DNA of 64,000 bases from Escherichia coli (GTDB lineage Bacteria > Pseudomonadota > Gammaproteobacteria > Enterobacterales > Enterobacteriaceae), in assembly GCF_965641715.1 (NCBI RefSeq), contig NZ_OZ282453.1; one strand, 5' to 3'. This document shows, one piece after another, positions 1,800 to 53,120 of the stretch. Each line of letters opens with the position of its first letter. Position 1 is the first letter of the stretch. The position numbers and the translations under genes are program-made. The notes beneath the pieces were generated by a model, which worked only from the letters and a program-made list of their open reading frames with translations, was not told the origin of the DNA and ran no database searches.

Positions 1800-1802
1800 C
1801 CT

Positions 1803-3158: not shown

Positions 3159-3205
3159 TTTTTACCTGAGGGGGAGGTTATCCCCCTTAACAATCAGGAG
3201 TTTTT

Positions 3206-4246: not shown

Positions 4247-4251
4247 AACCG

Positions 4252-4274
4252 CGGGCCAGCGTGATGCTGGCCCG
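4252..4274. terminator. Stable hairpin (9-bp stem cgggccagc/gctggcccg) between gatD and gatR; possible terminator or attenuator
   Basis: Inverted repeat read directly; no strong T-tract follows. Confidence 0.3.
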
Positions 4275-4345
4275 GTATTGTGCAAAACAGATCATTCACC
4301 AATGGTCCCCCTTCGTTTACACTAGCCACAATTGAATATGGGTAA

Positions 4346-5125: not shown

Positions 5126-5206
5126 TATTGTTCTGTATGCCGGATAAGGTATTTACACCGCATCCGGCATTACGGATTCTCCCTGGTTCAAGAGAGAATA
5201 GTTTGA

Positions 5207-6106: not shown

Positions 6107-6519
6107 GATCGTATGTGCCTTTATGATTGGTCTGTAGATAGTGTAGAGCAGAAAAGAAAAGGTGGAGTCAGAACAGGATGAAAGTCGGAGGATAAAAAGT
6201 CAGTTCAAGTATGGGGGATTCAGTGGTTACCACCAGGAGCTTGCAATGGGAACAGCGAATATTAACGGTAGCCACCGATAAATTTCAAAAAAGAGCATAT
6301 GCCTAATATTCAACCAAACAGTGGCATCTTAAATATACTATTCCAAATATATTAAAGCCCCCATGGAGTTACCCGGAAGGGCCTCCATGTCCGTAATTCC
6401 TACTTATGTAGGAAATGTTGTACAGAACATTTATTATAATCCTATTCAAATATAATAATCAGCCATTATTATATTTAAACACTAGAGAGTGTCGTTGGTA
6501 TTTAATGGGGAAAGGTGAG

Positions 6520-6837
6520 ATGAAAAAGATAGCTGCTATATCATTAATTAGTATTTTTATTATGTCTGGTTGTGCTGTGCATAATGATGAGACAAGTATC
6601 GGTAAATTTGGTCTTGCATATAAAAGTAATATTCAGCGTAAACTCGATAACCAATACTACACCGAAGCCGAAGCTTCTTTAGCCAGGGGCAGAATATCTG
6701 GTGCAGAAAATATAGTAAAAAATGATGCAGCCCATTTCTGTGTTACTCAGGGCAAAAAAATGCAGATAGTTGACCTGAAGACAGAAGGTGCAGGATTACA
6801 TGGCGTCGCTCGTCTGACATTCAAATGTGGAGAGTGA
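6520..6837 (+). CDS. yegR: Small lipoprotein YegR (105 aa)
   Basis: Start chosen at MKKIAAISLISIFIMSGC lipobox signal peptide preceded by aaaggtgag RBS; the longer ORF from 6415 is rejected. Confidence 0.7.
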   Translation: MKKIAAISLISIFIMSGCAVHNDETSIGKFGLAYKSNIQRKLDNQYYTEAEASLARGRISGAENIVKNDAAHFCVTQGKKMQIVDLKTEGAGLHGVARLTFKCGE

Positions 6838-6995
6838 GAATATTTTTTGGTAAGCGTCAAACATGCGCGTTCTGGTTGTGCTTAGCCGGAACCTGTGCGA
6901 GCACGATGCCAATAAGTGAAAGGCATCGTGCTATGAAGGGAGATTCTATCGATGTGGTCAATGGAAGACGGTGACCAGGGATAGGGCTTATGCAT

Positions 6996-7017
6996 AAAAA
7001 ATAAGCCCGTGTAAGGG
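6996..7017. repeat. attL core: 22-bp direct repeat aaaaaataagcccgtgtaaggg shared with attR
   Basis: Exact repeat found at 6996..7017 and 38957..38978; matches the P2 att core as I recall it. Confidence 0.7.
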
Positions 7018-7101
7018 CGTTTATATACCCTTACAACAGGGGCTTTCAGCGGTGCAATGCGGGTTTGCGCGGCACGCAAGACCACTGAAAGCCATAATAA
7101 A

Positions 7102-8115
7102 CTACCCTACTGTGGACACTGTGTGGACACTCTGAGAGCCAACACCACCACGTAGAGGATTAAGCGTTATCGCGTCCTGTAGGTACTCAGGGGCGAAGTG
7201 CGCATATGTCATTGTCTGCTCAATTCTTGAATGCCCAAGTATTCTCTGAAGCGTGATAATGTTGCCTCCGTTTATCATAAAGTGCGTGGCGAAGCTGTGC
7301 CGCAATGCGTGCGTAGCCTGACCCGGTGGTAGGTCGGGTTTCAGCTCCTTCATTAGCCGTCTGAACGCGGGATAGTTAGCATCAGTGAACAGATAGCCAC
7401 GCTTACCCGTTGTGATCATTGTTGCCAGTTCCTCGGATATAGGAACGGTTCGCGGCTTGTTGGTTTTTGTCTTAACGAAAGTGACGCGATTTTGAATGAT
7501 ATTTTCCGCTTTCAGTTTTGCTGCCTCACTCCATCTCGCGCCGGTGCTAAGGCAAAGAATCGCAATTTTTTTATTATCACCGTCCACTTTTGACAGCAGA
7601 AGCGCGATCTCCTCTTGCGTCAGGTAGCCGGTTTCTGGCTTATCCTCTTTGAGTCTTTTAAGACCTCGGAAAGGATGCTCCCCGAAAAATAGCTCCGCAT
7701 CTATCAACGCGGTAAACATCCCGCTAAGACACGTTAAATCACGATTTATACTCGATGGCTTGATGCCTTGAGAACGCCGCACAGTGCTGTATTGGCTTAT
7801 CAATGACTTAGTAATCTGAAAGGCACAAGGGTCACTGGTTATCTTTGTGAACAACTCTAACTTGCCCAGGTAATCTCGGCCGTGAGTTTCATACTTGCCT
7901 TTCAGCTCCCACCAGATTTTTGTTAGCTCTGACAGATGCCGCTTATCTGTCGGTTTCGCCAACCATTTTTTGTTGTGATGGTTGTACTGGGTATGCTTCT
8001 CGAAAGCGATAGCTTCGCTTTTCTTGTCAAATTTCCTGCGGATGCGCTTTCCGTTGCGCCCTGCAGGTCTAATGTCCACTTCATAACGACCATCATCGAG
8101 CTTTTTAACAGACAT
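7102..8115 (-). CDS. int: P2-type tyrosine integrase (337 aa)
   Basis: Near-identical to remembered P2 Int; start set at MSVKKLDDGRYEV; catalytic R..HxxR..Y region present. Confidence 0.9.
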   Translation of the reverse strand: MSVKKLDDGRYEVDIRPAGRNGKRIRRKFDKKSEAIAFEKHTQYNHHNKKWLAKPTDKRHLSELTKIWWELKGKYETHGRDYLGKLELFTKITSDPCAFQITKSLISQYSTVRRSQGIKPSSINRDLTCLSGMFTALIDAELFFGEHPFRGLKRLKEDKPETGYLTQEEIALLLSKVDGDNKKIAILCLSTGARWSEAAKLKAENIIQNRVTFVKTKTNKPRTVPISEELATMITTGKRGYLFTDANYPAFRRLMKELKPDLPPGQATHALRHSFATHFMINGGNIITLQRILGHSRIEQTMTYAHFAPEYLQDAITLNPLRGGVGSQSVHTVSTVG

Positions 8116-8211
8116 AAAGCCTCCCGATGATGTTACTGCGTACTTCAATTTCCTGATTTAAATAACAAAAACTCACCGTGCATTTACTGCACAGATAAGC
8201 ACCGTAAATGG

Positions 8212-8508
8212 TTAGCCAGTTTTCTGGTCTGAGTGGGGTGACGTTGTTGTCTGCTGCCCAAAGTGCGCGAGAGCCGGTGCAATCTGCCCAGCTTCTGGTG
8301 ATATCGTCTCAGTCATGAACCACATGGTATATTTTTTGAACTGTGGATGATTCAAAATCTTCATCACTGCTTGTATGCCCATATCTTTTACTCCCTTCTC
8401 ATAACTAGAAAGAGAGCTATACGGAACTCCAGTTAAGTCACTGAATTCTTTTCTATTCATACGTTCCGACTCACGCATGATGGCCAGCTTCTCGTTGACG
8501 GGTATCAT
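8212..8508 (-). CDS. P2 immunity repressor C (99 aa)
   Basis: Matches P2 C C-terminus (TPQFTKYTMWFMTE..SPHS.QKTG); start set at MIPVNEK. Confidence 0.8.
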   Translation of the reverse strand: MIPVNEKLAIMRESERMNRKEFSDLTGVPYSSLSSYEKGVKDMGIQAVMKILNHPQFKKYTMWFMTETISPEAGQIAPALAHFGQQTTTSPHSDQKTG

Positions 8509-8643
8509 CGTAATTAACACTCCACTATTGATAGAAAAACGATAACGGAGTAATCTTCGCTTCGTTACCGCAGATTTATGGCTCCAATATGGCAATTAAA
8601 AGCCATTAGGAGCAATTAAAACACTAACGAGGAATAGTCACAA
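8509..8643. promoter_or_regulatory. Divergent immunity switch region between C and cox (expected Pe/Pc promoters and operators)
   Basis: Position between divergent C and cox genes; inferred from P2 organisation, individual sites not mapped. Confidence 0.45.
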
Positions 8644-13443: not shown

Positions 13444-13462
13444 GGCGAGGCGGGGTAAGCGT
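13444..13462. other. cos-like 19-mer ggcgaggcggggtaagcgt (first 12 nt match the P2 cohesive-end sequence as recalled)
   Basis: Partial match to remembered P2 cos GGCGAGGCGGGGAAAGCAC; location between A region and Q is as expected. Confidence 0.3.
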
Positions 13463-13533
13463 TGCGCGCGCCTGTCAAAGATATTAAGATTGTCTCAAAA
13501 TCGATTGATTTTATTGAACTAATGGAGCTAGGA

Positions 13534-15090
13534 ATGATTAAGGGTATAGGTCTTCAAAACTTCAGGAGCTTTGTCAACAAAACGTTTATTGATTTAAAAC
13601 CAATTACAGTATTTGTTGGTAAGAACAGCAGTGGTAAAAGTTCCCTATTGCGCACATTTCCTTTACTTCGTCAATCTGTAGAAGAAAATACTACTGGCCC
13701 AATACTATGGTATGGGAGATATGTGGATTTTGGCGATTTTACAGATGTACTTTCCCGAAACTCTGAAAAAAAAGAAATTACGTTTAGTTTTTCACTCTCA
13801 ATTCCGCCAGAGGTTTCACAAAGATATACATATTATCGTTCTACTGATTTAGCAAAGCAACCAACAGATATTGAAGCAGAGTTAACTGTTTACTCTAAAG
13901 ATAAAAAAACAAAAACGAAAACGATTAAGCTTATATTGGCTGATTTAACAATATTTATTTCAATGGATGAGAGTAGTAATGTTAAATTACTCATTGAATC
14001 AGATGATAAAACAATAGAGCGTGATGGGATAATAGCTAAAAATCTTGGGCAGTTCATACCAAATCTAATTTTGAAGGGTAAGGAAGACAGTCCTCCTCCA
14101 AGCACATCATTCTATTTGAGACATTCTAGGCATGACAGGGCGTTAGAATTGTCATTTATTGATTCAGCGGCGAAATATATAAAGAAATATTTCCATACTA
14201 AATCTGATATAAATCAAGTGACAGAGGCATTCAAAAGAATTGGCTTTATACCCAAAGCGTACGCTAGTAAATTAGTTGCTTTTCTATTTAAGGAACAAAA
14301 AGTTTTTAGTAGAAACTTTGAATTTCAACATGATGAAATAATGAATGAGTTATATCCATTTATAATTGGATGGAATATTAATAATCTTATAGATATAATA
14401 AATACATCCTTGTCAGATTCATTCAGAAATGTAAAGTACATAGCTCCACTGCGTGCTACATCAGAAAGATTTTATCGTTTTCAAGATTTACAGGTTAATG
14501 AGATAGATCATACTGGTTCCAATCTTGCAATGCTTTTGAATTCATTAAGACCGGCTGATAAATCAAAATTTGAAGATTGGACAAAGTTAAATTTTGATTT
14601 CATTATCAAGGTTGAACAAAGTGGCTCTCACTTTGCAATTTTAATAAACACCGGTGAAAATAGTGAGAACTATAATGTTAGTGATATGGGGTTTGGTTAT
14701 TCTCAGGTTTTGCCGATAGTTACAGCCATTTGGCTTGAGACAGAACGTCGTGCTACCACGGTTAGAAAACCTATAACATTTATCATTGAGCAGCCAGAAT
14801 TGCATTTACATCCGTCATATCAGCATAATTTAGCAAGTATTTTTGCAAAAGTAGTAACTAAAGCAAAAGAAAATAATGTAGATTTGAAGATAATTTTTGA
14901 GACACATAGCCAGACCATGATTGAAGCACTTGGTGAATATATTGAGGAAAATGAAAGTCTTTCACAGGATGATATTTCAATACTGGTATTTGAAAAAGAT
15001 GATAAGCAGCAGACTATAGTTAAGAAATCTTATTTTGACGAGAATGGTTTCCTAAAAAATTGGCCGGTTGGCTTTTTCTCGGGTAAGTAG
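13534..15090 (+). CDS. OLD/AAA_21-like ABC ATPase (518 aa), first gene of cargo operon
   Basis: Start MIKGIGLQNFRSF with GGAG RBS; Walker A GKNSSGKSS (13618..13644); Walker B-like FIIEQPELHLHP (14779..14814); FETHS H-loop; AT-rich. Confidence 0.8.
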   Translation: MIKGIGLQNFRSFVNKTFIDLKPITVFVGKNSSGKSSLLRTFPLLRQSVEENTTGPILWYGRYVDFGDFTDVLSRNSEKKEITFSFSLSIPPEVSQRYTYYRSTDLAKQPTDIEAELTVYSKDKKTKTKTIKLILADLTIFISMDESSNVKLLIESDDKTIERDGIIAKNLGQFIPNLILKGKEDSPPPSTSFYLRHSRHDRALELSFIDSAAKYIKKYFHTKSDINQVTEAFKRIGFIPKAYASKLVAFLFKEQKVFSRNFEFQHDEIMNELYPFIIGWNINNLIDIINTSLSDSFRNVKYIAPLRATSERFYRFQDLQVNEIDHTGSNLAMLLNSLRPADKSKFEDWTKLNFDFIIKVEQSGSHFAILINTGENSENYNVSDMGFGYSQVLPIVTAIWLETERRATTVRKPITFIIEQPELHLHPSYQHNLASIFAKVVTKAKENNVDLKIIFETHSQTMIEALGEYIEENESLSQDDISILVFEKDDKQQTIVKKSYFDENGFLKNWPVGFFSGK

Positions 15091-15092
15091 TT

Positions 15093-16205
15093 ATGTTGAT
15101 TAATATCGAAAATGCGACACCTGAGAAGGTGCTAAATAACTCATTTGCCATAGCGGTTGAAAATATACTTCGGGCATTCGCTGAACAAAAACACTTGGTT
15201 ATAGGGGCAAGGGTTTTTTTTAAAACTATTATCAATGATCAAAGCGGGCTTTATAGCCTTTCATCAAAAAGTTACGCGCAAGAGGCTTTGTCGGGTCTAA
15301 CAGAGTACTATGCTATCTTGGATCAGGTCTCATTTTATGTATCTGTCGACTTTAATATTAGTGATAAATCATTTAAATGGGTTCAGATCGGTGAATCTTT
15401 TAAATTTGTTTGTGGTCCATTGTATTTTAATGACTCGGCACAATTGCAAAAAACGAAAATAGTATGTGAAAATCCTTTGGATTCTGATTTTTTTAAGGTT
15501 ATAGCGGCTCATTATGCCGAAGGTATTAACTTATCTCGCTGCGAAATGGGTTTTATCGCTCTAAATGGCGGTGGGGGCAGTACTAAGGATATATTCGAGC
15601 GTGCAATTCAAAATAATGAGATAGTTTTTTGTATTGTGGATAATGACAAAAAACATCCTGGAGCCCCATTCGGAGGTACTTGCTCACATTTTTTGGGCTC
15701 ACAAATTACTCGCTCAGGTTTCGTGGAGATTTTAGATGTACATGAAATAGAATCTCTAGTTCCTTTATCGACAATTGAAGATGTATTAAGAAGTCAAAGT
15801 CAATTGCAACAAAAAGAAAAATCTCTCATTTTCTTTAAGCATCTTTGCTCCGTAGATGAATCAGTAAAATTTTATATTGACCATAAAAAAGGTTTTGATT
15901 TTAAAACAGCCCTTGAACTCGATCGAAAACATGGTGCATATTGGCGTCCGATATTAAAGAAGCTTGATATAAAATATGATTGTGAGTATATCGAATCAAA
16001 ACGTTGTAGCTGCAACGCTGCTTGTGTAAGTTATGATGGTTTTGGAGAGAATTTGCTCAGCAATACATTGAAATATATACAAAAGGGAAGTTTAAAAAAA
16101 TATAATCCTCACCTAACACCAGTGCTTTCTGATAAATGGTATAAGTTAGGTAAGAATTTCTTTAGTTGGAGTTGTGGTCCATATAAAAAAGCAAGGGTTG
16201 GTTAA
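15093..16205 (+). CDS. Partner protein (370 aa) with Toprim-like signature, possible nuclease effector
   Basis: ATG 2 nt after ATPase stop; YAEG (15519..15524), GGGG, IVDNDKKHP (DND at 15639..15647); C-terminal Cys cluster; AT-rich. Confidence 0.65.
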   Translation: MLINIENATPEKVLNNSFAIAVENILRAFAEQKHLVIGARVFFKTIINDQSGLYSLSSKSYAQEALSGLTEYYAILDQVSFYVSVDFNISDKSFKWVQIGESFKFVCGPLYFNDSAQLQKTKIVCENPLDSDFFKVIAAHYAEGINLSRCEMGFIALNGGGGSTKDIFERAIQNNEIVFCIVDNDKKHPGAPFGGTCSHFLGSQITRSGFVEILDVHEIESLVPLSTIEDVLRSQSQLQQKEKSLIFFKHLCSVDESVKFYIDHKKGFDFKTALELDRKHGAYWRPILKKLDIKYDCEYIESKRCSCNAACVSYDGFGENLLSNTLKYIQKGSLKKYNPHLTPVLSDKWYKLGKNFFSWSCGPYKKARVG

Positions 16206-25038: not shown

Positions 25039-25791
25039 CTAACGTTCGAATATTATTATCACCCCAAGAGTGAGATGTATATGATCTTCTATTTGTTCAT
25101 ATTCTTCTTGGGTGTAAGAAAGTTTAGCTAATTCTTCTGTTGCTGAAAAGACATCAATGGATACTTGGACGCCTGATGGGATTTCATTTTTTATTTCATT
25201 AATGTATTTGTTGTATTTTCTTGTGATTAGTATTATTGCGCGATCTCTGTCGACGGTGGTTGAGCAATATCGATTGGATTTGCTGTTGTTATTGTGGAAT
25301 GATTCGAATGCGCAATTGAGGGCAAGTCTTAGATTTGATGATCCTGTATTTCCAGTGTGATTGAAGTATTCTATGTTTCTTCTTAAGTCTTCAAATAGTT
25401 TTGCCTTATTTGGATTGTCCCCTTTAACTTCAATAGCACATTTTGGATAATCAAACCCATTATTATTGCCTAGTATGGCAATGTCTATCCTACCTTTTCT
25501 GGTTGTGTTTGCTTTGATTCTTAGTATTTGCCTTGAAAATATTTTCCCCGGCGTTAGTCTTTTTGAAAATGGCACCGTTGAAGTTATAAAATCCCCTGTA
25601 TCATATTCAAAAATTATTTTCTCATCATCTATGTGAAAATTTTTACTATCAAGTAGGGCTTTGCCTATTGATACAGTAGCGACGTATTCGGTATTGATTT
25701 TACCACCAGAACTGAAATTCATTAAACGTGTGATTTTAGCTGCATTGGACATGCCATCCTTTACTGCTGTGATTATTTCGTAATTGTCCAT
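25039..25791 (-). CDS. AT-rich cargo protein (250 aa) with PD-(D/E)xK-like nuclease motif
   Basis: Opposite strand to flanking tail genes; motif GRIDIAIL..(17 aa)..AIEVKGDN (D103, E121, K123; 25423..25485); strongly AT-rich. Confidence 0.6.
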   Translation of the reverse strand: MDNYEIITAVKDGMSNAAKITRLMNFSSGGKINTEYVATVSIGKALLDSKNFHIDDEKIIFEYDTGDFITSTVPFSKRLTPGKIFSRQILRIKANTTRKGRIDIAILGNNNGFDYPKCAIEVKGDNPNKAKLFEDLRRNIEYFNHTGNTGSSNLRLALNCAFESFHNNNSKSNRYCSTTVDRDRAIILITRKYNKYINEIKNEIPSGVQVSIDVFSATEELAKLSYTQEEYEQIEDHIHLTLGVIIIFER

Positions 25792-28546: not shown

Positions 28547-30229
28547 ATGACAGTGAAATATAAAACCGTTATCACCCGAGCCGGTGCGGAAAAACTGGCG
28601 GCGGCGACGCTCCCGAACGGGAAAAAAGTCAATTTTGCGGTGATGGCCGTCGGGGACGGTGGCGGTAAGCTTCCCGAGCCGGACGCCAGTCAGACAAAAC
28701 TCGTCAATGAGGTCTGGCGTCATGCGCTGAACAAAATCTGCCTGGACAAAAAACATAAAAATTATGTCGTGGCGGAGCTGGTGATCCCCCCGGAGACCGG
28801 CGGTTTCTGGCTGCGTGAAATGGGGCTTTACGATGACACCGGCACGCTGATTGCGGTCGGCAATATGGCCGAAAGTTATAAGCCCGAACTGGCGGAAGGG
28901 TCAGGCCGCGCACAGACGCTGCGCATGGTGATCATGGTGAGCGATATCGACACCGTCGAGCTGTCCATCGATACAACACTGGTGATGGCGACGCAGGATT
29001 ATGTCGACGATAAACTCGCAGAGCATGAGCAGTCCCGTCGCCATCCTGACGCCACGCTGAAAGAAAAAGGGTTCACGCAGTTAAGCAGTGCGACCGACAG
29101 CACGTCTGAGGCGCTCGCCGCGACGCCGAAAGCGGTCAAAGTGGCGTATGACCTTGCGAAAGGTAAATACACGGCTCAGGACGCGACCACGGCGCAGAAA
29201 GGGATTGTCCAGCTCAGTAGCGCCACCGACAGCGTGTCTGAGACCCTCGCCGCGACGCCGAAAGCGGTTAAGGCGGCGAATGATAATGCTAATGGCCGCG
29301 TTCCTTCCTCGCGCAAAATTAACGGACATTCCCTGAATGCTGACATCAGTGTCACCTCGCAGGATATTTTCGACGGTCAGGCTATTGGGCTGGTAATGGA
29401 GGATTTAGATACCCTGAAAACGCCGGGTATTTACTTTCAGCCAGCGAACGCCAATACCTCAGCCGCCAGACATTACCCTGAAAATAACGCCGGGACGCTG
29501 GTCATTTATAAAAATGCCGGAGTGACTCAGGTATACCGGGTTTATAACAGCTCCCGGAGCTACTCGCGCAGCCAGTATTCAACAGGTGCATGGACACCGT
29601 GGACGCCTGATGATGTTTTTCCGGTAGGCGCGCCCGTTGCGTGGCCGTCTGACAGTGTTCCTGCTGGTTATGCCGTCATGCAGGGACAAACTTTTGATAA
29701 AGCCGCTTATCCGCTTCTTGCGGCTGTGTACCCATCGGGTGTTATTCCTGATATGCGGGGCTGGACAATCAAAGGTAAACCGGCCAGCGGTCGTGCAGTG
29801 CTTTCACAGGAACTGGATGGCATCAAGTCACATACTCACAGCGCAAGTGCATCAAATACAGACTTAGGTACTAAATCAAGCAGTGCATTTGATTACGGTA
29901 CTAAAACGGCCAGCACATTTGACTATGGTACTAAAACCACTAACAGCACCGGAGCGCATGCGCACGGTATTTCTGTTGGTAACACAGGCGCAGGTAATGG
30001 TATTTCAGCAGGTTACAACTCAGGGCTGGGCAATGGAACGACGGGGAGTGCAGGTGCGCACGCCCATACGGTCGGTATTGGCGCTCACAACCACACCGTT
30101 GGAATTGGTGCTCACAGTCATACTGTGGCAATAGGGGCTCACGGACATAACATCACTGTTAACGCAGCCGGTAACGCTGAAAACACCGTCAAAAACATCG
30201 CATTCAACTATATCGTGAGGCTTGCCTGA
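28547..30229 (+). CDS. Tail fibre protein H-like (560 aa) with internal repeats and HxH-repeat C-terminal tip
   Basis: Conserved N-terminus ([28 protein letters not shown]), duplicated [17 protein letters not shown] repeats, C-terminal GAH.HT repeats. Confidence 0.85.
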
Positions 30230-30807
30230 TGACTTTCAAAATGACCGGGAAAAGCCGGACAATCACTGTTTATAACTATCGCGCAGATACCTGTGAATTT
30301 ATTGGAAAAGGTGACGCCCTGATCCCACCATTTACCGGACTCCCTGCCTGTTGTACCAGTGAAAAACCGCCAGAAACCAGCGCGGGATGTATTCCCGTTT
30401 ACGACACTGAAAGCGGACGATGGAACATCACTGAAGACCACAGGGGTGAGGTTGTCTATGACACTGAAACAGGTCATCAGATGGAGATAACCGAACCGGG
30501 TAAATATCCGACAGGGACAACAACCGCTGCACCTGAAAACCCGTGGCAAAAATGGAATGGTAAAGCATGGATTGATGATGCTGATGCAGAACGGAATGCA
30601 TTGACTGAGTCTGCGAAAAACAACAAAAGCATGCTTCTTAAGCAGGCCAATACTGCGGTTGCGACATTACAGGACGCTGTTGATCTGGAGATGGCAACCG
30701 AAGATGAAAAAGCACAGCTCGCGGCATGGAGGAAATACCGTGTTTTACTGAGCCGCATCCAGCCAGAGAATGCCCCGGATATTGAATGGCCGCCGCTGCC
30801 AGTCTGA
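30229..30807 (+). CDS. Tail fibre assembly chaperone (G-like)
   Basis: 192 aa, translationally coupled to H. Confidence 0.75.
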   Translation: MTFKMTGKSRTITVYNYRADTCEFIGKGDALIPPFTGLPACCTSEKPPETSAGCIPVYDTESGRWNITEDHRGEVVYDTETGHQMEITEPGKYPTGTTTAAPENPWQKWNGKAWIDDADAERNALTESAKNNKSMLLKQANTAVATLQDAVDLEMATEDEKAQLAAWRKYRVLLSRIQPENAPDIEWPPLPV

Positions 30808-30941
30808 TCCGACATCCGGCGGGCAGTTGCCCGCCTTTTCCTTTCCCGTCGTTGTGCCAGACCTTAGCCAACCCTGACAAATAGCCCCTCATCACCACAC
30901 AACAGAAAATACACTCACCCCTTAACCACGGAGTTAAACGG

Positions 30942-37866: not shown

Positions 37867-38718
37867 TTGAACAATATCCCCATATCTACTCAATGGACTT
37901 TAGACGCTACGGGTGAAGTTGGACGCTCATCAGTAAATTCTGTTTATATGATTATATGTCCTGCGACAGGCTCGAAAGGATCTGGTTTTTTAATAGATAA
38001 TGGGTTAATAGTAACGAACGAGCATGTTATCACTGGATGCTCTACAAATCAGATTTTCGCAATTTCAGCTTATGGACAGAAGATTCCAATTTCTCAAAAA
38101 TGGATAGATTCTGATCGCGATTTAGCTGTGCTGAGACCTGCCATTACCCAGACTGGTGGGCTAAGTATTGTTAAGGATAATGATCTTAAAGTTGGTGAAT
38201 CAGTAACAACTTGGGGATACCCATTAGGATACAACGGTCCTGCACCGTTACTATCCGTTGGTTATCTAGCAGGATTTAACTCATACCAAACCGCCAAGGG
38301 ACAAAAAAAACATCTAGTGGTAAATGGGGCATTTAACTCAGGAAATTCTGGTGGAGCTCTTTTAAAAGCTTCAGATAATAAAGTAATAGGTATTGTAGTG
38401 AGTAAGCATGCTCCTATCAGTCAATACCATCAATCAGCTATTGAAGCTTTGTCTGAAAATATGAGTGGCGTCACCTATACCGCTACTAATGACGCTGGAG
38501 AAACTAAAAGTTTTGTAGAATCTCAAATTGTAGCAGAATTATTGATTCATATGAGAAGTCTAACTCAAGTTATGATTGGAGAAGCAATTGCAGCAGAGGA
38601 ATTACTTTCGATGCTTAGCGAAATTGACTTGAGTCCACCACAATCTATGTCAAGAAATGCCTTATGTCATTGCGGGAGTGGAAAACGCTTCAAAGAATGT
38701 CATGGAAAGATATCCTAG
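37867..38718 (+). CDS. AT-rich cargo: trypsin-like (S1/chymotrypsin fold) serine protease with C-terminal SEC-C zinc-binding motif
   Basis: TTG start with strong aaaggag RBS 7 nt upstream; catalytic-triad-like TNEHV / DLAVL / GNSGGAL; C-terminal CHCGSGKRFKECHG (38662..38703). Confidence 0.65.
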   Translation: MNNIPISTQWTLDATGEVGRSSVNSVYMIICPATGSKGSGFLIDNGLIVTNEHVITGCSTNQIFAISAYGQKIPISQKWIDSDRDLAVLRPAITQTGGLSIVKDNDLKVGESVTTWGYPLGYNGPAPLLSVGYLAGFNSYQTAKGQKKHLVVNGAFNSGNSGGALLKASDNKVIGIVVSKHAPISQYHQSAIEALSENMSGVTYTATNDAGETKSFVESQIVAELLIHMRSLTQVMIGEAIAAEELLSMLSEIDLSPPQSMSRNALCHCGSGKRFKECHGKIS

Positions 38719-41907: not shown

Positions 41908-42630
41908 CTAAACGATGCGGCAGGCGTCGGCTTCCCAGCGGTAACCAACGCCGTAAACGGCGCGGATAAATGACTGTTCGGCGTCGAGAGATTCCAGCTT
42001 GCGGCGCAGGTTTTTAATGTGGCTGTCGATGGTGCGGTCGGTTACTACGCGGTAGTCGTCATAAAGATGATTGAGCAATTGCTCGCGGGAGAACACTTTT
42101 CCTGGTTCATGAGAGAGCGTTTTCAGCAGACGAAATTCCGCAGGCGTCAGGTCAAGCATTTTACCGCGCCATGAAGCCTGAAAACGACCTTCGTCGATAA
42201 TCAACGGGCTTTCAGCATCCTGTTGCTGCAACTCACGCTGCGGTTTGCAACGGCGCAAAATGGTTTTGACACGCGCTACCACTTCCCGTGGGCTGTACGG
42301 CTTGCAGATGTAGTCATCTGCGCCAATCTCCAGCCCCAGCAGGCGGTCGATCTCTTCGATTTTTGCTGTCACCATCACGATAGGAATGTCAGAAAAACGA
42401 CGAATTTCCCGGCACAGCGTCAAGCCATCGGTGCCAGGGAGCATCAGATCCAACAGGATCAGATCCGGTGGTGTCTGGCGCACATACGGCAGTACCTGAT
42501 CGCCGTGGCTGATAAGCGTCGGCGCATAGCTCGCAGCACGCAGATAATCAATGAGCAACTGCCCCAGCTTCGGTTCATCTTCCACGATCAAAATACGCGG
42601 TGTGTTTTCGTCGATTGGTAACTCGGTCAT
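41908..42630 (-). CDS. baeR: Envelope-stress response regulator BaeR (OmpR family)
   Basis: 240-aa receiver + winged-helix protein, coupled to baeS. Confidence 0.9.
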
Positions 42631-44030
42631 ACTTCTCTCTGTAAATCCCGTTCCAGCGGTAACTCTACTGTAATGCTTACCCCGCCAAAAGGCGAATGGG
42701 CAGCAATAATGCGGCCATTATGTGCTTCAACAATGTTCAGGCAAATCGCCAACCCCAGCCCGGAACCGCCGCTGGCACGGTTGCGGGAACCTTCGGTGCG
42801 ATAAAAACGTTCAAACAATTTTTGTAGCTGATCGTCACTGACACCTGGCGCACTGTCGGCAAAGGTCAGGCGCACCGTTTTGTCGTGCTGCTCGGCAGAG
42901 ATTTTCAGGCTGCCGCCGCTGTCAGTGTAGCGCAGGCTGTTTTCCAGTAAATTATTGAACAACTGCATTAAACGGTCGCGATCGCCAAATACGGTAATAC
43001 TGTCTGGCAGGGAAAATTGCAGTTTCAGGCCACGGCTGGCGAATCGTTCGCGAAATGCGCCGCCCGCCACTTCCAGCAGTGGGATCAAATCTACCGGTGC
43101 TTTTTGATAGGCGAGAGCGCCTTCATCAGACATCGACAACTGATGAAGATCGTCAACCAGTTTGGTCAGTGTACCGACCTCCGCCTGTAAAGACGCCACC
43201 GTCTCCGGCGTGAATTTGCGCACGCCATCCTGAATGGCTTCCAGTTCACCGCGCAGCACCGCTAATGGCGTACGCAGTTCGTGAGAAATATCGGCCATAA
43301 AATCGCGCCGCATTTGCTGGTTTTTCTCCAGCGTGCTGGCGAGCTGGTTGAAGTCTTGCGCCAGTTTGCCCAGTTCATCTTCACTGGTGGGCGTTACGCG
43401 GGTAGTGAAATCGCCCGCCGCCAGTTTGTGCGTGCCGTCCACCAGCCGTTTGACCGGGGCCAAAAGACCACGCGCCAGCAGAAAGGTGGCGAGCGCCGCG
43501 AGTAACGTTGCCAGGGCGACAATCAGCCAGCTGGTTTGCCGCTGTTGTTTATCGAAATTGATATCAGTATTGCGCGTTAACCGCTCAACGGGGGAGGCGA
43601 TCACCGCGCCAACTTCCGCACCGTTGACCAGAATGGGTCGCCGTGTACCGTCAGGTGGAATCGGCGCTCGCGGACCAACCAGCACTTTGTTGTTTTGATC
43701 AACCACCCAGAACTGGGTACGCCAGCCGTGCGGTGGCATACCCGGGCCGGGTTTATCTTCCGAATTATCGTGTTCAAATGAACGCAGGATCTGAAAGACA
43801 AAGCGATCATTGTTGCGCAGGAAGCGCCAGTTACCATGCTGCGCATACTGCTCGCCAAGCGCATCACTTAACAGTTGTAATCGCTGTTCATTACCATGCT
43901 TGATGTAATCAATAAAGCCACGCTCAAAACTGATACGCACCGCCCAGTGCATACTGATCAGCAAGACAATGCAGGTGGCGAAAATCGCCAGAAACAGTTT
44001 GCCGGTAATACCGGGTCGCCAGAACTTCAT
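42627..44030 (-). CDS. baeS: Sensor histidine kinase BaeS
   Basis: 467 aa with TM segments, HAMP, H-box (SHELRTP) and ATPase domain. Confidence 0.9.
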
Positions 44031-45442
44031 TGCGCGCTCCTTTTTCGCCGCGAAATAGCTACATTTTGATGCGTATCGTTCGGCACTCTGGCAAAGATGA
44101 ACGCCGGAAGGGCGATGATAAACGCCATGCTAAGCCAGGTGTACATAAAGACGGTTTGTGTGGTGCCGCTGTCGACGCTGACATGCTGCGAACCAAAAAG
44201 TCCCAGCAACAGCCCGGCGATGGTGACGCCGATACTCATCGACAATTGCATAATCATCGACAGCAGACTGTTGCCGCTGCTCGCCAGATTGTCCGGGAGA
44301 TCTTTCAGCGTCAGGGTGTTCATGGAGGAGAAACGGGTCGAGTTGACCATCCCTTGTAAAAACAGGACGAACGGCAAAACGTAGTACCAGCCCAACAGAG
44401 CGGTAGTCATAAACAACAGGGTGACCAGCGACAGACCCAGCGTGGTCGCTACCAGTACCCGACGATAACCAAAGCGATTCACCACCTGTACAACAATCCG
44501 CTTCATCCCCATGCTGCCAAGCACCATCGGGATCATCATCAGTCCGGCATGAAACGGTGAGAAGCCAAGGCCAATTTGCAGGAAAACCGGCGTCATAAAG
44601 GGCAACATGCCGCTACCGATACGTCCGGCAAAGCTCCCCGCCAGGCCCAGCGAAAAGGTACGAGTGCGGAACAGTTTCAGACTGAAAAGAGCGCGGTTGT
44701 TATTTCTGGCGTGCAGCAGATAAAGCACCAGTGCCACCACACCAACTGCGACCAGGCCAGTAATCGCCAGCGGCGATAAACCTGTACCTTTACTGCCGTC
44801 CAGCGCCAGGGTTAATACCGCCATGCCAACCGCCAGCAATAAAAAGCCGGAAAGATCAAAGCGCCGCGTCTGCATGGTGTAGTTCGGCATTAACATCAAT
44901 GTGGCGATCGCACCGATAATCCCCACCGGAATGTTGATCAAAAAGATCCAGTGCCACGACGCGTACTCCACCAGCAGACCGCCGAGCGCCGGACCGAGCA
45001 GCGGACCGACCTGACCGGGTAACGTGACAAAGGTCATCGCCGCCATATATTGCTCGCGCGGTACGATTTTCATCACCGTCAATCTGCCGACCGGCACCAT
45101 CATCGCGCCGCCAACGCCCTGTAACGCGCGTGCCAGCAACAGTTCGTTCAGCGTGCCGGAAAGCGCGCAAAACAATGAACCGAGAGTAAACAGCACGATG
45201 GCGGTAAAGAAAATATTGCGCACGCCGACTTTGTCCGCCAGCCAGCCGCTGGCGGGCAGCATCACCGCCACGGTCAGTACATAAGAGACAATGACCATGT
45301 GCATATGCAACGGACTTTCCCCGAGGCTTTGCGCCATTGAGGGAAGGGCGGTGTTTACGATGGTGGTGTCCAGCGACTGCATAAAGAAGCCGAAAGCCAC
45401 AATCCACAATTGCCAGCGGGTGCTGTCGGGAAGATCTGTCAT
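44027..45442 (-). CDS. mdtD: MFS transporter MdtD
   Basis: 471-aa polytopic membrane protein; operon position. Confidence 0.9.
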
Positions 45443-48400
45443 TTACTCGGTTACCGTTTGTTTAGGTTTACGCGAAAAACGCAGCCGCAGACGGTCGAAA
45501 AAGAGATATACCACCGGCGTGGTATACAGCGTCAGGAGCTGACTCATCACCAGACCGCCGACAATGGTGATCCCCAAGGGTTGCCGCAGCTCCGAGCCGT
45601 CACCGCCCGACAACACCAGCGGCAGCGCGCCAAACAGCGCCGCCAGGGTAGTCATCATAATCGGGCGAAAACGCAGCAGACAGGCCTGGAAAATAGCTTC
45701 CTGCGGCGTCAGGTTACCGTGCCGTTGGGCTTCAAGCGCAAAATCGACCATCATAATGGCGTTTTTCTTCACAATGCCGATTAATAGCATGATCCCTATC
45801 ATGGCGATTAGGCTGAACGGGGCATTGAACAGCTCCAGCGCCAGCAGCGCTCCAACGCCCGCCGAGGGCAGGGTGGAGAGAATCGTCAGCGGATGTACGT
45901 AACTCTCGTAAAGGATACCCAGCACGATATACACCGTGGCGATGGCGGCGATAATCAGGATCACCTGTGAGTTCATCGTCTCCTGGAACACCTGCGCCGT
46001 GCCGGCAAAACTGCCGCGCACCGTCGAAGGCACACCAAGCTGGGTCATTGCGCGGTCGATTGCCGCACTGGCGTCCGAGAGCGATTTTCCGGTCGGCAGG
46101 TTGAACGAGATGGTCGAGGCTGCCGATAATCCCTGATGATTCACCGATAGTGGGGCATTCGCCGGTTGCCATTTAGCGAAATACGACAGCGGGATCGCTT
46201 TTCCTTCGTTATTGATTACGAACATTTTTTCCAGCGCACTGATGTCCTGGGTATAGCGCGGATCCACTTCCATCACCACTTTGTACTGGTTCATCGGCTG
46301 GTAAATGGTCGAGATTTGCCGCTGACCGAAGGCGTTATTTAACAGGCTGTTGGCGGCCTGTACGTCGATTCCCAGCCGTGCCATGGTGTCGCGATCGTAA
46401 ACCAGATTCATCTCCGCGCCGTTATCCTGCTGATCGGAGTTCACGTCCGCCAGTTCCGGTAACGTTGCCAGTTTTTTGCGGATTTTCGGCTCCCATTCGC
46501 GCAGTGCCGCCAGGTCGTCGGATAACAACGTGTACTGGTAACTGGCGTTCGACTGACGTCCGCCAACGCGAATATCCTGTACCGCCATCAGGAACAGATT
46601 CGCCCCCGGTTCTTTCGCCAGTTTCACCCGCAGACGGTCGATAATTTGCTGCGCCGTTTCGCTGCGTTCGCCGCGTGGCTTGAGGGTGATAAACATCATC
46701 CCGCTGTTCACCCGCGAACCGCCGGTAAAGCCGGTGACATTATCCACTGCCGGATCGTCACGGATAATTTTCATGAAATCCTGCAATTTTCCGCGCATCG
46801 CCTGAAACGAAATACTCTGATCCGCCTGTATCCCGCCCATCAACACGCCGGTGTCCTGCTCCGGGAAGAAGGTTTTCGGGATCGAGATATAGAGCCAGAT
46901 ATTCAAAGCAATGGTGCCAAGCAGCACCACGCCCACCAGACGGGTATGATTGAGCACCCATTTCAGTGACTTACCATAGCCTTGTTGCAGGGCTACCAAC
47001 ATGCGACCAAAACCACGCAGTCGCTTTTGCTCGCGCGGCTTGCTGGCTTTCAGCATCCAGCCACACATCATTGGCGTTAATGTCAGAGAAACCAGCAACG
47101 AAATACCAATGGCGACAGAAAGCGTCACGGCAAACTCGCGTAACAGTCGGCCCGGCAATCCGCCCATCAACAGCAGCGGCAGGAACACCGCCACCAGTGA
47201 CAGACTCATCGACAGCACCGTAAAGCCGACTTCGCGAGTACCTTGTAGCGCGGCCTGTAGTGGTTTCATCCCCGCTTCCAGATGACGGGCAATGTTTTCC
47301 AGCACCACGATGGCGTCATCCACCACGAAACCAGTAGCGATGGTGAGCGCCATTAACGACAGGTTATTGAGACTGAATCCGCACAGGTACATCGCCGCAA
47401 ACGTACCAATCAGCGAAACCGGCACCGCAACGGCGGGAATAATAGTGGCGCGACCCGAGCGCAGGAATAAAAAGACCACCAGAATCACCAGCGCCACCGA
47501 GATAATCAGCGTTTGCTCGACTTCTTCCAGCGAGGCGCGAATGGTGGGGGAGCGATCCTGAGCAATTTGCAGATCAATCGCCGCCGGAATGGTCTCCTGC
47601 AACTCCGGTAATTTTGCCCGGATGCTGTCTACCGTCTGGATAATATTGGCTTCCGGCAGTTTGCGGATCATCAGCAAAATAGCCGGTTTGGCGTTGGTCA
47701 TCCCGGCGTTGCGCACATCCTGCACTGAGTCGGTTACCGTTGCCACATCGCCCAGACGAACCGCACCACCATTGTTGTAGTGAATAATCAGCGGCTGATA
47801 TTCAGCGGCGGTTTTCAGTTCATCGTTGGTCTGGATCTGCCAGCGGTGAGTGCCATCTTCCAGCGCCCCCTGCGGTTTACGCACGTTGGCATTGCTGATG
47901 GCAGTGCGTACGTCGTCCAGCGACACGCCCTGATTAAACAGCGCCTGCGGGTTCAGCCCGACGCGCACGGCGGGCAGCGAGCTGCCGCCGACATCGACAT
48001 CACCGACGCCGTCGATTTGCGAAATCGTCGGAGCCAGCTGCGTCGAGGCGAAATCGTACAATTCACCCTGCGAATAAGTATCGGAGGTTAGCGTCAGGAT
48101 CATAATTGGCGCATCCGACGGGTTCGCTTTGCGATAAGTCGGGCGGCTGGGCATCCCACTGGGCAGCAGACTTTGTGCGGCGTTGATCGCCGCCTGCACA
48201 TCACGCGCCGCACCGTTGATATCCCGGTCAAAATCAAACTGCAAAATAATACGCGTGCTGCCGAGCGAACTGCTGGAGGTCATTTCACTGACCCCGGCAA
48301 TGCGCCCAAGTGAACGCTCCAGCGGCGTGGCAACGGAAGACGCCATTGTCTCCGGCGACGCACCGGGCAGCGAGGCGCTGACCATAATCACCGGAAAATC

Positions 48401-48520
48401 GACCTGCGGCAGCGGGGCGACCGGCAGCATACGGAAACCCAGTATGCCGCACAGGGTAATGGCGACCGACAGTAAAATCGTCGCCACCGGGCGGTAAATG
48501 AAGAGGGCAAAAAACTTCAC
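45443..48520 (-). CDS. mdtC: RND multidrug efflux transporter MdtC
   Basis: 1025 aa RND permease, position. Confidence 0.9.
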
Positions 48521-51500
48521 TTACGCCTCCTCTTCATGGCGAGCAAAGCGACTTTTGGTCCACAATGCCAGGCGGTCGAATAGCAGATAAATCACCGGCG
48601 TGGTAAACAGAGTCAGCACCTGGCTGACAACCAGACCACCGACCATACCAATGCCTAACGGACGACGCAGTTCTGCGCCGACCCCGGTACTTAACATCAG
48701 CGGTAGCGCGCCGAGCAGTGCCGCCAGAGTGGTCATCAGGATCGGACGAAAACGCAGCAGACAAGCCTGATAGATGGCATCGCGCGGCGACATGCCTTGC
48801 TCGCGTTCGGCAGCCAGCGCGAAGTCGATCATCATGATGGCGTTCTTCTTCACAATACCGATCAACAAAATAATGCCGATAATCGCGATCACATCCAGTT
48901 CGCTACCGGCAATCAGTAACGCCAGTAGTGCGCCGACCCCTGCCGTGGGCAACGTCGAGAGAATGGTGATCGGATGAATAAAGCTTTCGTACAGAATACC
49001 CAGCACGATATACATCGCCACTACTGCCGCGACAATCAGCCAGACAGTACTGCCCAGCGCCGACTGGAAGGCGAGGGTGCTGCCCTGGAATTGTGTGGTG
49101 ATATCCACTGGCAGATTCAGCGTTTTTTCGGTATCCATAATCGCCTGCACCGCATCGCCCAGCGAATAGTTATCCGGCACGTTAAAGGAGATGGTCGTTA
49201 CCGGGAACTGATCCAGATGGTTGATGGAAAGCGGCGCAAAACGCTGCTCAACTTTGGCAATTGAGCTTAACGGCACCACGCCGCCATCGCTGCTGGTAAG
49301 GCGAATGGTATCCAGCGCCGCAAGCCCTGGGGTATTTTCGGTGTTGTGCTCCAGCACCACGCGATACTGGTTGGCCTGAGTATAAATGGTGGAAATCAGC
49401 CGCTGACCAAACGCGTTGTACAGGGCGTTATCGACGTCCGCCATGCTGATCCCCAGACGGCTGGCGCTGTCGCGATCAACATTGACATACGCCACCAGCC
49501 CTTTGTCCTGCCAGTCGCTGGAGACATCAGATAGCTGTGGCAGCTGCTGGAGTTTTTCCATCAACTGTGGCACCCAGGTACTGAGCGCATCCAGTGACGT
49601 GGCCTGCAAGGTAAACTGGTACTGGGTGCGGCTGACCTGAGTATCGATGGTCAGGTCCTGCGTTGGTTGCAGGAAGAGATCGACGCCCGGCACTTTATCC
49701 ACCGCCGTTTGCAGACGGGCGATGACTTTTTGCACCCGATCATCACGTTCATCCAGCGGTTTGAGGTTGATCTGTAAACGCGCACTGTTCAGCGACGGGT
49801 TAGTGCCATCAACGCCAACAAATGAGGTCAGACTTTGCACTGCCGGATCCTGCAAAATCACGTCCGCGACCTGGCGTTGCCGCTGGGCCATATTGGTAAA
49901 GGAGCTGGATTGCGGTGCCTGCAAAGTGCCCTGAATAATGCCGTTGTCCTGTACCGGGAAGAAACCTTTCGGAATGAACACCCACAATAGAACGCTAAGC
50001 AGCAGCGTGCTGAGCGCCACGCTTAAGGTCAGCCACGGATGATTCAGCACTTTCGCCAGTCCACGTCCATAGGCGGCGATTATCCTGTCGAACATTTTCT
50101 CCGAGGCACGGGAGAAGCGGTTCTGTTTACGCAGCGACTCCTGGCTGAGCATCCGCGCGCACATCATCGGTGTCAGGGTCAGCGACACCACCGCTGAGAT
50201 CAAAATCGCTACCGCCAGGGTAATAGCAAATTCGCGGAACAGTCGCCCGACGATATCGCCCATAAACAGCAGTGGGATCAACACCGCAATCAGTGAGAAG
50301 GTCAGCGAGATAATGGTAAAGCCGATTTCACCTGCGCCCTTGAGCGCCGCCGCCAACGGTTTTTCGCCTTTTTCGATATAGCGGGAAATATTTTCGATCA
50401 CCACGATGGCGTCATCGACCACGAACCCGGTGGCGATAGTTAACGCCATCAGCGTCAGGTTATTGATTGAAAAATCGAGAAACACCATAACCGCAAAAGT
50501 GCCGATTAACGACAGCGGCACGGCAACACCGGGAATGATGGTCGCCGGAATATTGCGCAAAAACAGGTAGATAATCATGACTACCAGCGCGATAGCCATC
50601 ATCAGCTCAAACTGGGTATCGTCGACGGATGCGCGGATATTGGTGGTACGGTCAGAAAGTACCGTCACCTTCACCGATTTCGGCAGACTCTCGGTGAGCT
50701 GCGGCAGCATCTGCCGGATGCTGTCGGCGGTGGAGATAATGTTAGCACCGGGCTGGCGCTGAACATTCATCACAATGGCCTGTTCTTTATTCGCCCATGC
50801 GCCGAGCCAGCTGTTTTCTGCACCTTGCTCTACGGTTGCGACATCGCCCAGACGAATCGGCGCGCCGTTCTGGTAGGCGATAATCAACTGGCGATATTCT
50901 TCCGCAGATTGCATTTGGTCATTCGCGGAAAGCGTAACCGCGCGGGAAGGGCCGTCGAGGCTACCTTTTGCAGAGTTAACGTTAGCGCCGGTAATGGCGG
51001 TGCGCACGGTTTCGCTGGTCAGGCCGAGGGCGGCAATCGCCTGAGCGTTAAGTTTGACGCGAACAGCCGGACGCTGCCCGCCGGAAAGCGTCACCAGGCC
51101 GACGCCGGAAATCTGCGAGATTTTCTGCGCGACGCGGGTTTCCACCATATCTTCCACTTGCGTCATCGGCATGGCTGTTGAGGTGACGGCGAGCGTCATG
51201 ATCGGCGGATCTGCCGGGTTCACTTTGCTGTAAACCGGCGGGTTAGGCAGATCGCTCGGCAACAAGTTGGTCGCAGCGTTAATCGCGGCCTGCACTTCCT
51301 GCTCGGCGACATCGAGCGGTAATGTTAGCTGGAACTGCAAAGTGATAACTGACGCACCGCCGGAACTTTGCGACGACATCTGTTTCAGGCCAGACATCTG
51401 CCCGAACTGGCGTTCGAGCGGCGCGGTAACGGCAGAGGTTATGACATCCGGGCTCGCACCTGGGTAGAGCGTGACCACCTGAATGGTCGGATAGTCCACT

Positions 51501-51643
51501 TCCGGCAGCGCCGAAACGGGCAGGGCGCGATAACCGATAATCCCGGCGAGTAAGATCGCCACCATCAACAGCGTGGTGGCGACAGGACGCATAATAAACA
51601 GGCGCGACGGGCCGCCTGTGCTGCTCGGGGGTAACACCTGCAT
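48521..51643 (-). CDS. mdtB: RND multidrug efflux transporter MdtB
   Basis: 1040 aa RND permease, position. Confidence 0.9.
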
Positions 51644-52890
51644 CAGGAGCGAGCTCCTTTTTTCGCGTATTCGCGGCTGGTGGCTTTCTCTTCCGGAGTG
51701 GTGGCGCTCTGGGCTTCCACCACTTCCACTTTCGCCCCTTCGGTCAGGCGATCAATGCCGTCTGTCACCACGCGATCGCCCGCAGAAATACCTGCGCGGA
51801 TCACCACTTTCTGACTGTCCTGAATGCCCGGCGTCACCAGATGTTTGCTGACCTTGTTTTCGCTATTCAGCACCCAGACAAAATGGCCTTCATTGCCCAT
51901 TTGCAGGGCGGCGGTGGGGATCACTACGGCGTTTTGTTCGGTGTCGACTAACATGCGCGCGTTAACAAACTGATTGGGAAACAGCGCATCATCCTGATTA
52001 TTAAAGCGTGCTTTCACTTTAATCGTACCGGTAGTGGCATCGATTTGGTTATCGAGACTTAACAGCGTGCCTTCACTTAATTTCTTCGAGTTGGTGCGAT
52101 CCCAGGCTTCTACCACCAGCGGTTTTCCGGCTTTTTGCGCCTGCACAACGGTAGCGATATCGCTTTCCGGCAGGGTAAAGAGCAAATCGATAGGATGCGT
52201 CTGGGTGATCACCACAATTCCGGTGGTATCACCACTGGAGATTTGGTTACCAACATCAACCTGCTTGAGACCAACGCGACCATCGACTGGTGCGGTGATG
52301 CGGCTCCAGTCGAGTTGCAGCTGTGCGCTGGCGACGCTTGCTTCATCAGCCTTAATGGTGCCTTCGGTTTCACTGACCAGCGCTTGTTGGGCATCCAGTT
52401 CCTGACGAGATACGAGATTGGTTTTTACCAGTTGTTGATAACGCGCCAGGTCACGGCGGGCGTTGGCAAGCGTGGCTTTATCTTTTGCCAGTTGGCCCTG
52501 GGCTTGTGCTAATGCAACTTTGAACTGGCTGGGGTCAATTTCTGCCAGTAAATCGCCTGCTTTGACCTGCTGGCCTTCCTGGAAATGTAACGCCATCAAC
52601 TGACCATCTACGCGGCTGCGCACCGTAACGGTGTTAGCAGCGGTAATGGTGCCAAGCCCGGTGAGGTAACGCGGAACTGCCTGTTCTACGGCGGTCGCCG
52701 CCTGAACCGGGGCTAATGGGCCGGAACGCATACCACGGCGACCACCCGCTGGCGATTGCTGCGCTTGTTTCGTCGCCCCTGGGGCTGCACTCTGGGAGTC
52801 ATTGCGGCCTTGCCAGAACCAGAATGCGGCGATGGCGGCGATAACCACCACGATTACGATTACCCAACGGGATTTATAACTACCTTTCAT
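51643..52890 (-). CDS. mdtA: Membrane fusion protein MdtA (415 aa)
   Basis: Start at MKGSYKSRW with TM anchor; upstream extension of the listed ORF rejected. Confidence 0.85.
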
Positions 52891-53120
52891 CGTTAAGAGT
52901 TTCTCTTCCTGAAACGTTTCGCGGAATGATACTAGTGTAGCCAGCCAATAAGGGAGAAAAATGGAGGAATTATGAAACACTATCGGGAATCGTCTGAATG
53001 GCGGGCACATTTGCGAGCACGCATCCAGTAATAACACAGGAAACTATTTTATCTACGCGTTAGCGATAGACTGCTTGCATGGCGAAAGGAGGTAAGCCGA
53101 CGATTTCAGCGGGACGCTGA

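Follow-up and report, generated by a model that had tools for sequence, protein, structure and literature searches.

A P2-type prophage tail fibre of Escherichia coli with a probable T4 gp37/lambda Stf-like receptor-binding module

Receptor-binding proteins homologous to T4 gp37 and lambda Stf form a published family of more than 200 members. Their homology is limited to the last ~215 amino acids (aa) (gp37 812-1026), divergence is centred on T4 residues 932-965, and a gp38/Tfa-like gene (184-207 aa) is always found directly downstream; the P2-like Salmonella phage SEN5 is one of the members (Magaziner & Salmond 2022, PMC9659904). Here we describe a fibre gene that displays each of the published features of the family: C-terminal homology, tip divergence and a downstream assembly gene. 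The gene is an open reading frame (ORF) of 560 aa plus stop, located at 28547..30229 (+) in a stretch of 64,000 nucleotides (nt) of Escherichia coli DNA (contig NZ_OZ282453.1), hereafter called the window. In the ORF listing it occupies the gene H position of a P2-like prophage that extends over nt ~7,100-37,900. Neighbours assigned with PHROGs and compared with the P2 annotation follow the P2 order W-J-I-H-G-FI-FII, and the arrangement V-W-J-I-H-G-FI-FII is common to the prophage and P2. Such neighbours identify the ORF as the equivalent of P2 gene H.

The anatomy of the C-terminal module is known from T4, where a crystal structure of the gp37 tip (2XGF; Bartual et al. 2010) and a domain map (Islam et al. 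2019, PMC6957217) are available. HxH (His-x-His) motifs line the core of the gp37 stem, seven iron atoms run along the core of the needle, the distal tip is a loop between the second and third HxH motifs, and the last 17 residues go back to the collar domain (PMC6957217). One HxH motif from each of three chains makes up a metal site, and octahedral His6-Fe sites built from HxH motifs are found in gp37, in pyocin fibres and in the P2 gpV spike (PMC6116203). Mutagenesis and binding assays in T4 indicate that residues of the equivalent tip contact lipopolysaccharide (LPS) and OmpC (PMC6957217). Folding of gp37 is assisted by gp38, which acts as its chaperone. Mosaic tail fibre genes of P2 and other phages were reportedly described by Haggard-Ljungquist et al. 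in 1992 and by Sandmeier in 1994. Montag et al. are said to have found in 1989 that lambda stf/tfa can replace the gp37 tip and gp38 of T4, and GxHxH "His boxes" were reportedly recognized as recombination points in T-even adhesins by Tetart et al. in 1996/1998.

Homology of the C-terminal module and mosaic junctions

When the protein was compared with the Protein Data Bank (PDB) using phmmer, aa 357-560 matched the gp37 tip structure 2XGF (gp37 785-1026) with E=1.3e-72, over chain positions 28-242. Across the module the fibre shares ~64% of its residues with T4 gp37, 75% with lambda Stf and 80% with the Stf protein of the P1-like phage JL22 (ON018986.2; our locus L002), and the C-terminal 17 aa are nearly identical in these three fibres. 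The resemblance to the gp37 needle proposed in the initial annotation is thus true homology, which embraces collar, needle and tip (domains D10-D11 of gp37), and a gp38/Tfa-type gene follows the fibre gene in both systems.

The proximal part of the fibre has a different affiliation. P2 H aligns by BLASTP to aa 1-253 only (76% identity), a region made of the baseplate-binding domain and two Phage_fiber_2 repeats in both proteins. Beyond aa 253 no significant BLASTP alignment to P2 H (region 254-669) was obtained, and the run of HxH motifs is not a universal trait of P2 H, as the P2 H sequence contains none. P2, 186, PSP3 and Yersinia P2-like phages match just aa 1-251/256. A second mosaic junction is marked by Enterobacter phage ENT4, which matches aa 1-352 and nothing further. 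Between the two junctions lies a knob (defined as in PMC6116203) akin to Knob2, a domain that the R2 pyocin fibre carries (6CL6/6CT8). The pyocin fibre also uses an HxH-Fe site in its shaft; it differs, however, in having a single site of this kind, a lectin-fold C-terminal domain and no gp37 needle. Altogether, the fibre is best described as a mosaic of at least three parts: a P2 H-type part (aa 1-253), a knob (aa 276-352) and a gp37-type part (aa 356-560). Because P2 H matches aa 1-253 only and aa 357-560 match 2XGF, the suggestion that the C-terminal module of a mosaic fibre had been swapped finds clear support. The hosts of the module differ accordingly in architecture: in T4 it is carried by a distal half-fibre of ~800 aa and here it is joined to a P2-type proximal part of 355 aa; compared with lambda Stf, the window fibre belongs to a contractile P2-type tail.

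A duplicated segment upstream of the module had also been pointed out. The duplication is real and corresponds to two PF03406 copies at ~aa 174-204 and 218-248. Since P2 H has both copies, identically placed, it is an ordinary trait of this class of fibres and nothing special to the gene H protein. Three copies are found in Salmonella Peduovirus STYP1 and in Escherichia phage Chuche, and the repeat region also matches the Mu fibre protein S in structure 5YVQ.

STYP1 and Chuche are built alike over the full length, with 69% and 68% identity, respectively, over 100% of the query; each of them has six HxH motifs and a downstream Tfa gene, and their tip cassettes differ from that of the window. 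Salmonella phages SEN1 (57.5%) and SEN4/5 (45.7%) match 99-100% of the query. STYP1, SEN1 and SEN4/5 are sequenced Peduoviridae that share the architecture, and Chuche is unclassified.

Chuche harbors an additional ORF between its fibre gene and tfa (locus L010:3315-4184, PP925824.1), with the C-terminus ...GAHIHQ...IGAHSHGRNITIGAHSHTTNKQ. It resembles what might remain of an HxH needle return strand, joined to an N-terminal portion that is unrelated. A macro-domain protein is annotated at the same place in SEN4/5, and the Chuche ORF is a macro-domain ORF.

The needle, its predicted metal sites and the variable tip

The gene H protein contains six HxH motifs, at aa 429, 471, 505, 514, 523 and 532, and 12 of its 18 histidines sit in them. 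When the protein was shuffled 100,000 times, the number of motifs averaged 0.54 and never exceeded 5, so that no shuffle reached six. The run noticed in the initial annotation is therefore more than chance, and the C-terminal peptide quoted there was exact: nt 29951-30154 translate as given, inside the H ORF. The first motif (aa 429-431, nt 29831-29839) is upstream of the interval initially marked, the second is found at nt 29957-29965, and the others at nt 30059-30067, 30086-30094, 30113-30121 and 30140-30148; the whole HxH-bearing module spans nt 29612-30226.

Motifs three to six belong to a 9-aa repeat, (G/A)IGAHxHTV. Identity among the 27-nt units of its DNA is no more than 55-74%, and the units were not called by Tandem Repeats Finder, and for these reasons the repeat can be said to be maintained at the protein level. 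A second repetition is found in the outbound stem, where the decapeptide FDYGTKTxST is duplicated and the DNA forms a 30-nt tandem repeat of 2.4 copies (nt 29867-29937).

All 12 HxH histidines are invariant in an alignment of 42 sequences that includes T4 gp37 and lambda Stf, and this count comprises the eight histidines of the return strand. Exactly six motifs are present in 128 of 136 homologues, so that the six-HxH form is the commonest. In T4, seven C-terminal motifs correspond to the seven iron sites of gp37, and the six motifs of the window align one-to-one with six of them. Because an equivalent of T4 H915/H917 is absent, six metal sites are predicted for the gene H fibre compared with seven in T4. 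Each stem strand is ~4-5 residues shorter than in T4, and the two strands are mutually consistent in this respect. Lambda Stf departs in the other direction: it has eight HxH motifs, and its tip is far longer (45 aa, compared with 25 aa in the window).

Combination of the T4 domain map with our sequence alignments gave the anatomy of the module (Table 1). On this basis, one element of the initial annotation has to be amended: the fibre was said to end in an HxH tip, and the HxH run would instead form the core of the stem. The protein does not appear to end at the tip. Its distal end would be an internal loop of ~25 aa (aa 474-498), placed between the second and third HxH motifs, and its last 17 aa would be back at the collar. 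The T4 tip is 28 aa long and has an unrelated sequence.

The distribution of sequence variability along the module is uneven. Among 75 unique homologues, mean column entropy is 0.41 bits in the collar's N-terminal part, 0.56 bits in the outbound stem, 2.45 bits in the tip, 0.70 bits in the return stem and 0.37 bits, the lowest value of any segment, in the last 17 residues. Sixty-five distinct cassettes, 30-45 aa long between the flanking HxH motifs, were counted among the 136 homologues. Members of the 90% identity cluster of the gene H protein are near-identical save for wholly different tips. The same contrast is seen in DNA when the prophage is compared with a sister E. coli prophage: the tail genes are 95-100% identical, nt 29987-30046 only 43%, and identity is regained near nt 30650. 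Because the tip is hypervariable and the scaffold constant, and because the equivalent tip residues of T4 contact LPS and OmpC, aa 474-498 would be the host-range determinant and the histidines would have a structural role.

We also considered whether tip diversity might be generated within the locus by a diversity-generating retroelement template or by an invertible alternative segment of the Mu gin or P1 cin type. The evidence speaks against both: searched by blastn with nt 29828-30226, the whole window returned only the query itself and thus holds no further copy of the needle DNA.

As a side observation, the tip of JL22 Stf is the closest found to that of the window, with 71% identity. At positions 1607-8624, JL22 carries a gp37/lambda-type stf-tfa pair together with a Mu-type S/U fibre pair, the latter placed beside a cin invertase gene.

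These data lead us to propose, with considerable confidence, that gene H encodes a modular trimeric fibre made of a P2-type N-terminus, repeats, a knob, a gp37/lambda Stf-type module and a variable tip, served by a Tfa-type chaperone. Baseplate attachment would be provided by the N-terminus, and the two Phage_fiber_2 repeats and the knob would lead to a receptor-binding module homologous to T4 gp37 D10-D11 and to the tip of lambda Stf. In this module, each chain would run from the collar outward along a six-stranded beta needle, turn at aa 474-498, travel back and end in the collar. The HxH motifs of three chains would place six histidines around a single metal ion, Fe(II) in T4, buried on the three-fold axis, and this would happen at six sites along the needle. 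The histidines would thus be a structural scaffold and not a point of contact with the receptor. Host specificity would reside in the hypervariable tip loop, which may be exchanged among related fibres on a constant scaffold, and the overlapping lambda Tfa/T4 gp38-type chaperone would be expected to start folding of the trimer from the conserved C-terminus. Within this picture, homology, conservation of the motifs, the mosaic junctions and the pattern of variability were observed directly, and trimer formation, binding of metal, the role of the chaperone and the tip as receptor site are inferred.

The putative downstream chaperone and alternative readings

The start of the downstream ORF overlaps the stop of gene H by 1 nt (TGATG), as occurs in lambda stf-tfa. 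Its product shares 48% identity with lambda Tfa from end to end and 25% with T4 gp38 over 177 aa, and its likeness to P2 G is confined to the C-terminal 65 aa (41.5%). Compared with P2 gpG, the protein thus combines an N-domain of the lambda/T4 type with a P2 G-like C-terminus. Nothing resembling gp57A was seen in the H-G region, the rest of the window not having been searched.

A dip in sliding identity at nt ~29750-30650, observed in the comparison with the sister prophage, had raised the idea that the tip and the Tfa N-domain might move as a single cassette. Pairwise comparison across seven loci led us to reject it, as the two identities are uncorrelated. Tip identity between the window and locus L007 is 34% and Tfa N-domain identity is 95%; for the window and JL22, the values are 71% and 50%; for JL22 and lambda, the values are 16% and 94%. 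In sister prophages the Tfa N-domain is 84-95% conserved while tips are only 18-34% identical. In these seven loci the chaperone N-domain tracks phage lineage and scaffold and not the tip, and the chaperone may recognize the invariant parts of the module.

Three points are to be weighed against the trimeric fibre that we propose. One is the missing T4 H915/H917 site, whose place is taken by the second FDYGTK repeat, so that the geometry of the stem differs somewhat. Another is the failure of tip and Tfa N-domain to co-vary. The third is the lack of structural support from AlphaFold2: mean pLDDT (predicted local distance difference test) was 55, with a predicted template modelling score (pTM) of 0.21, for a monomer of aa 357-560 modelled with the 42-sequence alignment, and 32 for a trimer whose three copies were connected through 25-aa glycine-serine linkers (15-row alignment). 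Low pLDDT is expected because the putative fold is an obligately intertwined, metal-bound trimer and no multimer method was used, and the models speak neither for nor against the fold. Assignment of the fold rests on the ~64% identity to a solved structure.

A further speculation, which we regard as doubtful, is that aa 474-498 constitute a plug-in cassette. Such cassettes would be swapped among P2-like, P1-like and lambdoid fibres through recombination at the conserved sequences that flank the HxH motifs, independently of the chaperone, and the Gly/Asn/Ser-rich tip of the window might recognize a receptor that is new to the family.

A different view of the locus is that the needle might be a mere scaffold, and the downstream protein might stay bound to the tip as the true adhesin, as in T2/T6-type gp38 or Mu Tfa. 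In favour of it, the 1-nt overlap couples translation of the gene to that of H, and a stable complex of the Mu fibre with Tfa has been solved (5YVQ, the structure matched by the repeat region). However, the protein belongs to Caudo_TAP and to phrog_105 ("tail fiber assembly"), is related to T4 gp38 and lambda Tfa, and T4 gp38 is described as a folding chaperone of gp37. Furthermore, an adhesin should vary with specificity, and the observation is the opposite: the Tfa N-domain is conserved and it is the fibre tip that varies. The downstream protein therefore fits the assembly chaperones, conserved where tips differ, better than an adhesin that caps the fibre, and we consider the latter unlikely.

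Even less probable is that gene H is decaying to a relic within a cryptic prophage, with no current function. Many homologues in databases are certainly short (200-360 aa) or labelled as partial. Against this possibility, the ORF is full-length and intact within an apparently complete P2-type tail operon, and the residues of the scaffold are strongly conserved. The identical protein has already been deposited as an E. coli "phage tail protein" found on 36 contigs, and 122 members make up the 90% identity cluster to which it belongs, with one of them present on at least 1000 contigs.

We give still less credit to the view that the run of histidines lies exposed as a surface for binding metal or a receptor, a "Trojan horse" that would offer iron to siderophore receptors, instead of a buried core. 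The iron content of gp37 is real (PMC6957217) and the idea has been discussed for marine phage fibres that bear HxH motifs (PMC11705849). In the homologous T4 structure, however, the irons run along the core of the needle; members of the family whose receptor is known use OmpC or LPS (PMC6957217, PMC9659904), and invariant histidines beside a hypervariable tip fit a scaffold and not a specificity determinant. Finally, a module of the T4 gp12 short-fibre type (collar and a single metal site) in place of a gp37-type needle is barely credible: the Pfam Collar family is common to both and the short-fibre structure 9CUY is matched at E=6e-6, but this match spans the collar only (aa 357-448), the match to gp37 extends over aa 357-560 and surpasses it by 66 orders of magnitude, and each of the six HxH motifs has its counterpart in gp37.

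Feature coordinates, other loci in the window and significance

Coordinates of gene H, of its domains and of the downstream gene are listed in Table 1.

Table 1. Coordinates of gene H, its predicted domains and the adjacent chaperone gene in the window
Feature	Position (nt)	Strand	Evidence
Gene H, mosaic P2-type tail fibre	28547..30229	+	ORF listing, P2 gene order
N-terminal baseplate-attachment domain, aa 1-151, P2 H-like	28547..28999	+	Pfam PF12571 Phage_tail_fib E=2.2e-55
Two Phage_fiber_2 repeats, aa 170-253	29054..29305	+	PF03406, two stretches, E=1.8e-37; P2 H homology stops here
Knob domain, aa 276-352	29372..29602	+	phmmer vs PDB: 6CT8 E=3.3e-4, 6CL6 E=1.7e-3
Collar, N-terminal part, aa 356-427 (T4 gp37 D10 811-881)	29612..29827	+	PF07484 Collar E=3e-10; 2XGF alignment
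Needle stem, outbound strand, aa 428-473 (T4 882-931)	29828..29965	+	2XGF alignment, PF03335
Distal tip subdomain, aa 474-498 (T4 932-959); predicted receptor-binding loop	29966..30040	+	Alignment, entropy
Needle stem, return strand, aa 499-543 (T4 960-1009)	30041..30175	+	2XGF alignment
C-terminal 17 aa, 544-560 (T4 1010-1026), collar D10 C-terminal part	30176..30226	+	Domain map
Putative tail fibre assembly chaperone (P2 G position), 192 aa	30229..30807	+	PF02413 Caudo_TAP E=1.6e-36; phrog_105

Several loci of the window outside gene H deserve mention. Only 134 bp (30808..30941) separate the chaperone gene from the sheath gene FI, and the lysogenic-conversion gene fun(Z) of P2 is absent there. 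Between S and V, the position occupied in P2 by the non-essential orf30, a 249-aa ORF at 25039..25791 (-) strongly matches Tin, an anti-phage protein (PADLOC PDLC02359, E=5.5e-93). A two-gene cargo at 13462..16205 (+), in the old/tin hotspot of P2 and adjoining the portal gene Q, is a candidate defence system: its first gene encodes an AAA ATPase of 542 aa that matches NsnB (4.9e-55), PDC-M55A (7.5e-46) and AriA (7e-31), and the 370-aa product of the second gene has a weak match to PDC-M55B (2e-4). A 283-aa ORF at 37867..38718 (+), directly beyond the D gene at the prophage edge, may also be related to defence; it partially matches the C-terminal region of RT-Protease_XI (7e-21) as well as LmuA/HamA DUF1837-like models. 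Further along, at 41908..53037 (-), ORFs of 240, 467, 471, 1025, 1040 and 464 aa resemble the baeR-baeS-mdtD-mdtC-mdtB-mdtA operon of E. coli, a likeness judged by ORF lengths and order only; if correct, it would put the prophage in an E. coli-type chromosome.

The module swap is real and at the same time ordinary, as the fibre is a member of a published and widespread family, and current understanding of phage fibres is left unchanged by the locus. Its practical value lies in engineering. Fibres of P2 and R-pyocins have been retargeted artificially, for example in P2:S16 gp37 chimeras (PMC9594776). The locus offers natural, working junctions at aa ~253 and ~352-356, and a single conserved scaffold with six HxH motifs comes with a library of 65 or more tip cassettes. 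If the tip were indeed a plug-in cassette, the short six-HxH needle would amount to a minimal platform able to take different tips without a change of Tfa. For the biology of the phage, the locus carries modest weight: it is a clean example from nature of tail-fibre modularity, in which a P2 chassis carries a T4/lambda-type receptor needle, and the probable host-range determinant of the prophage would be placed in a single loop of 75 nt.

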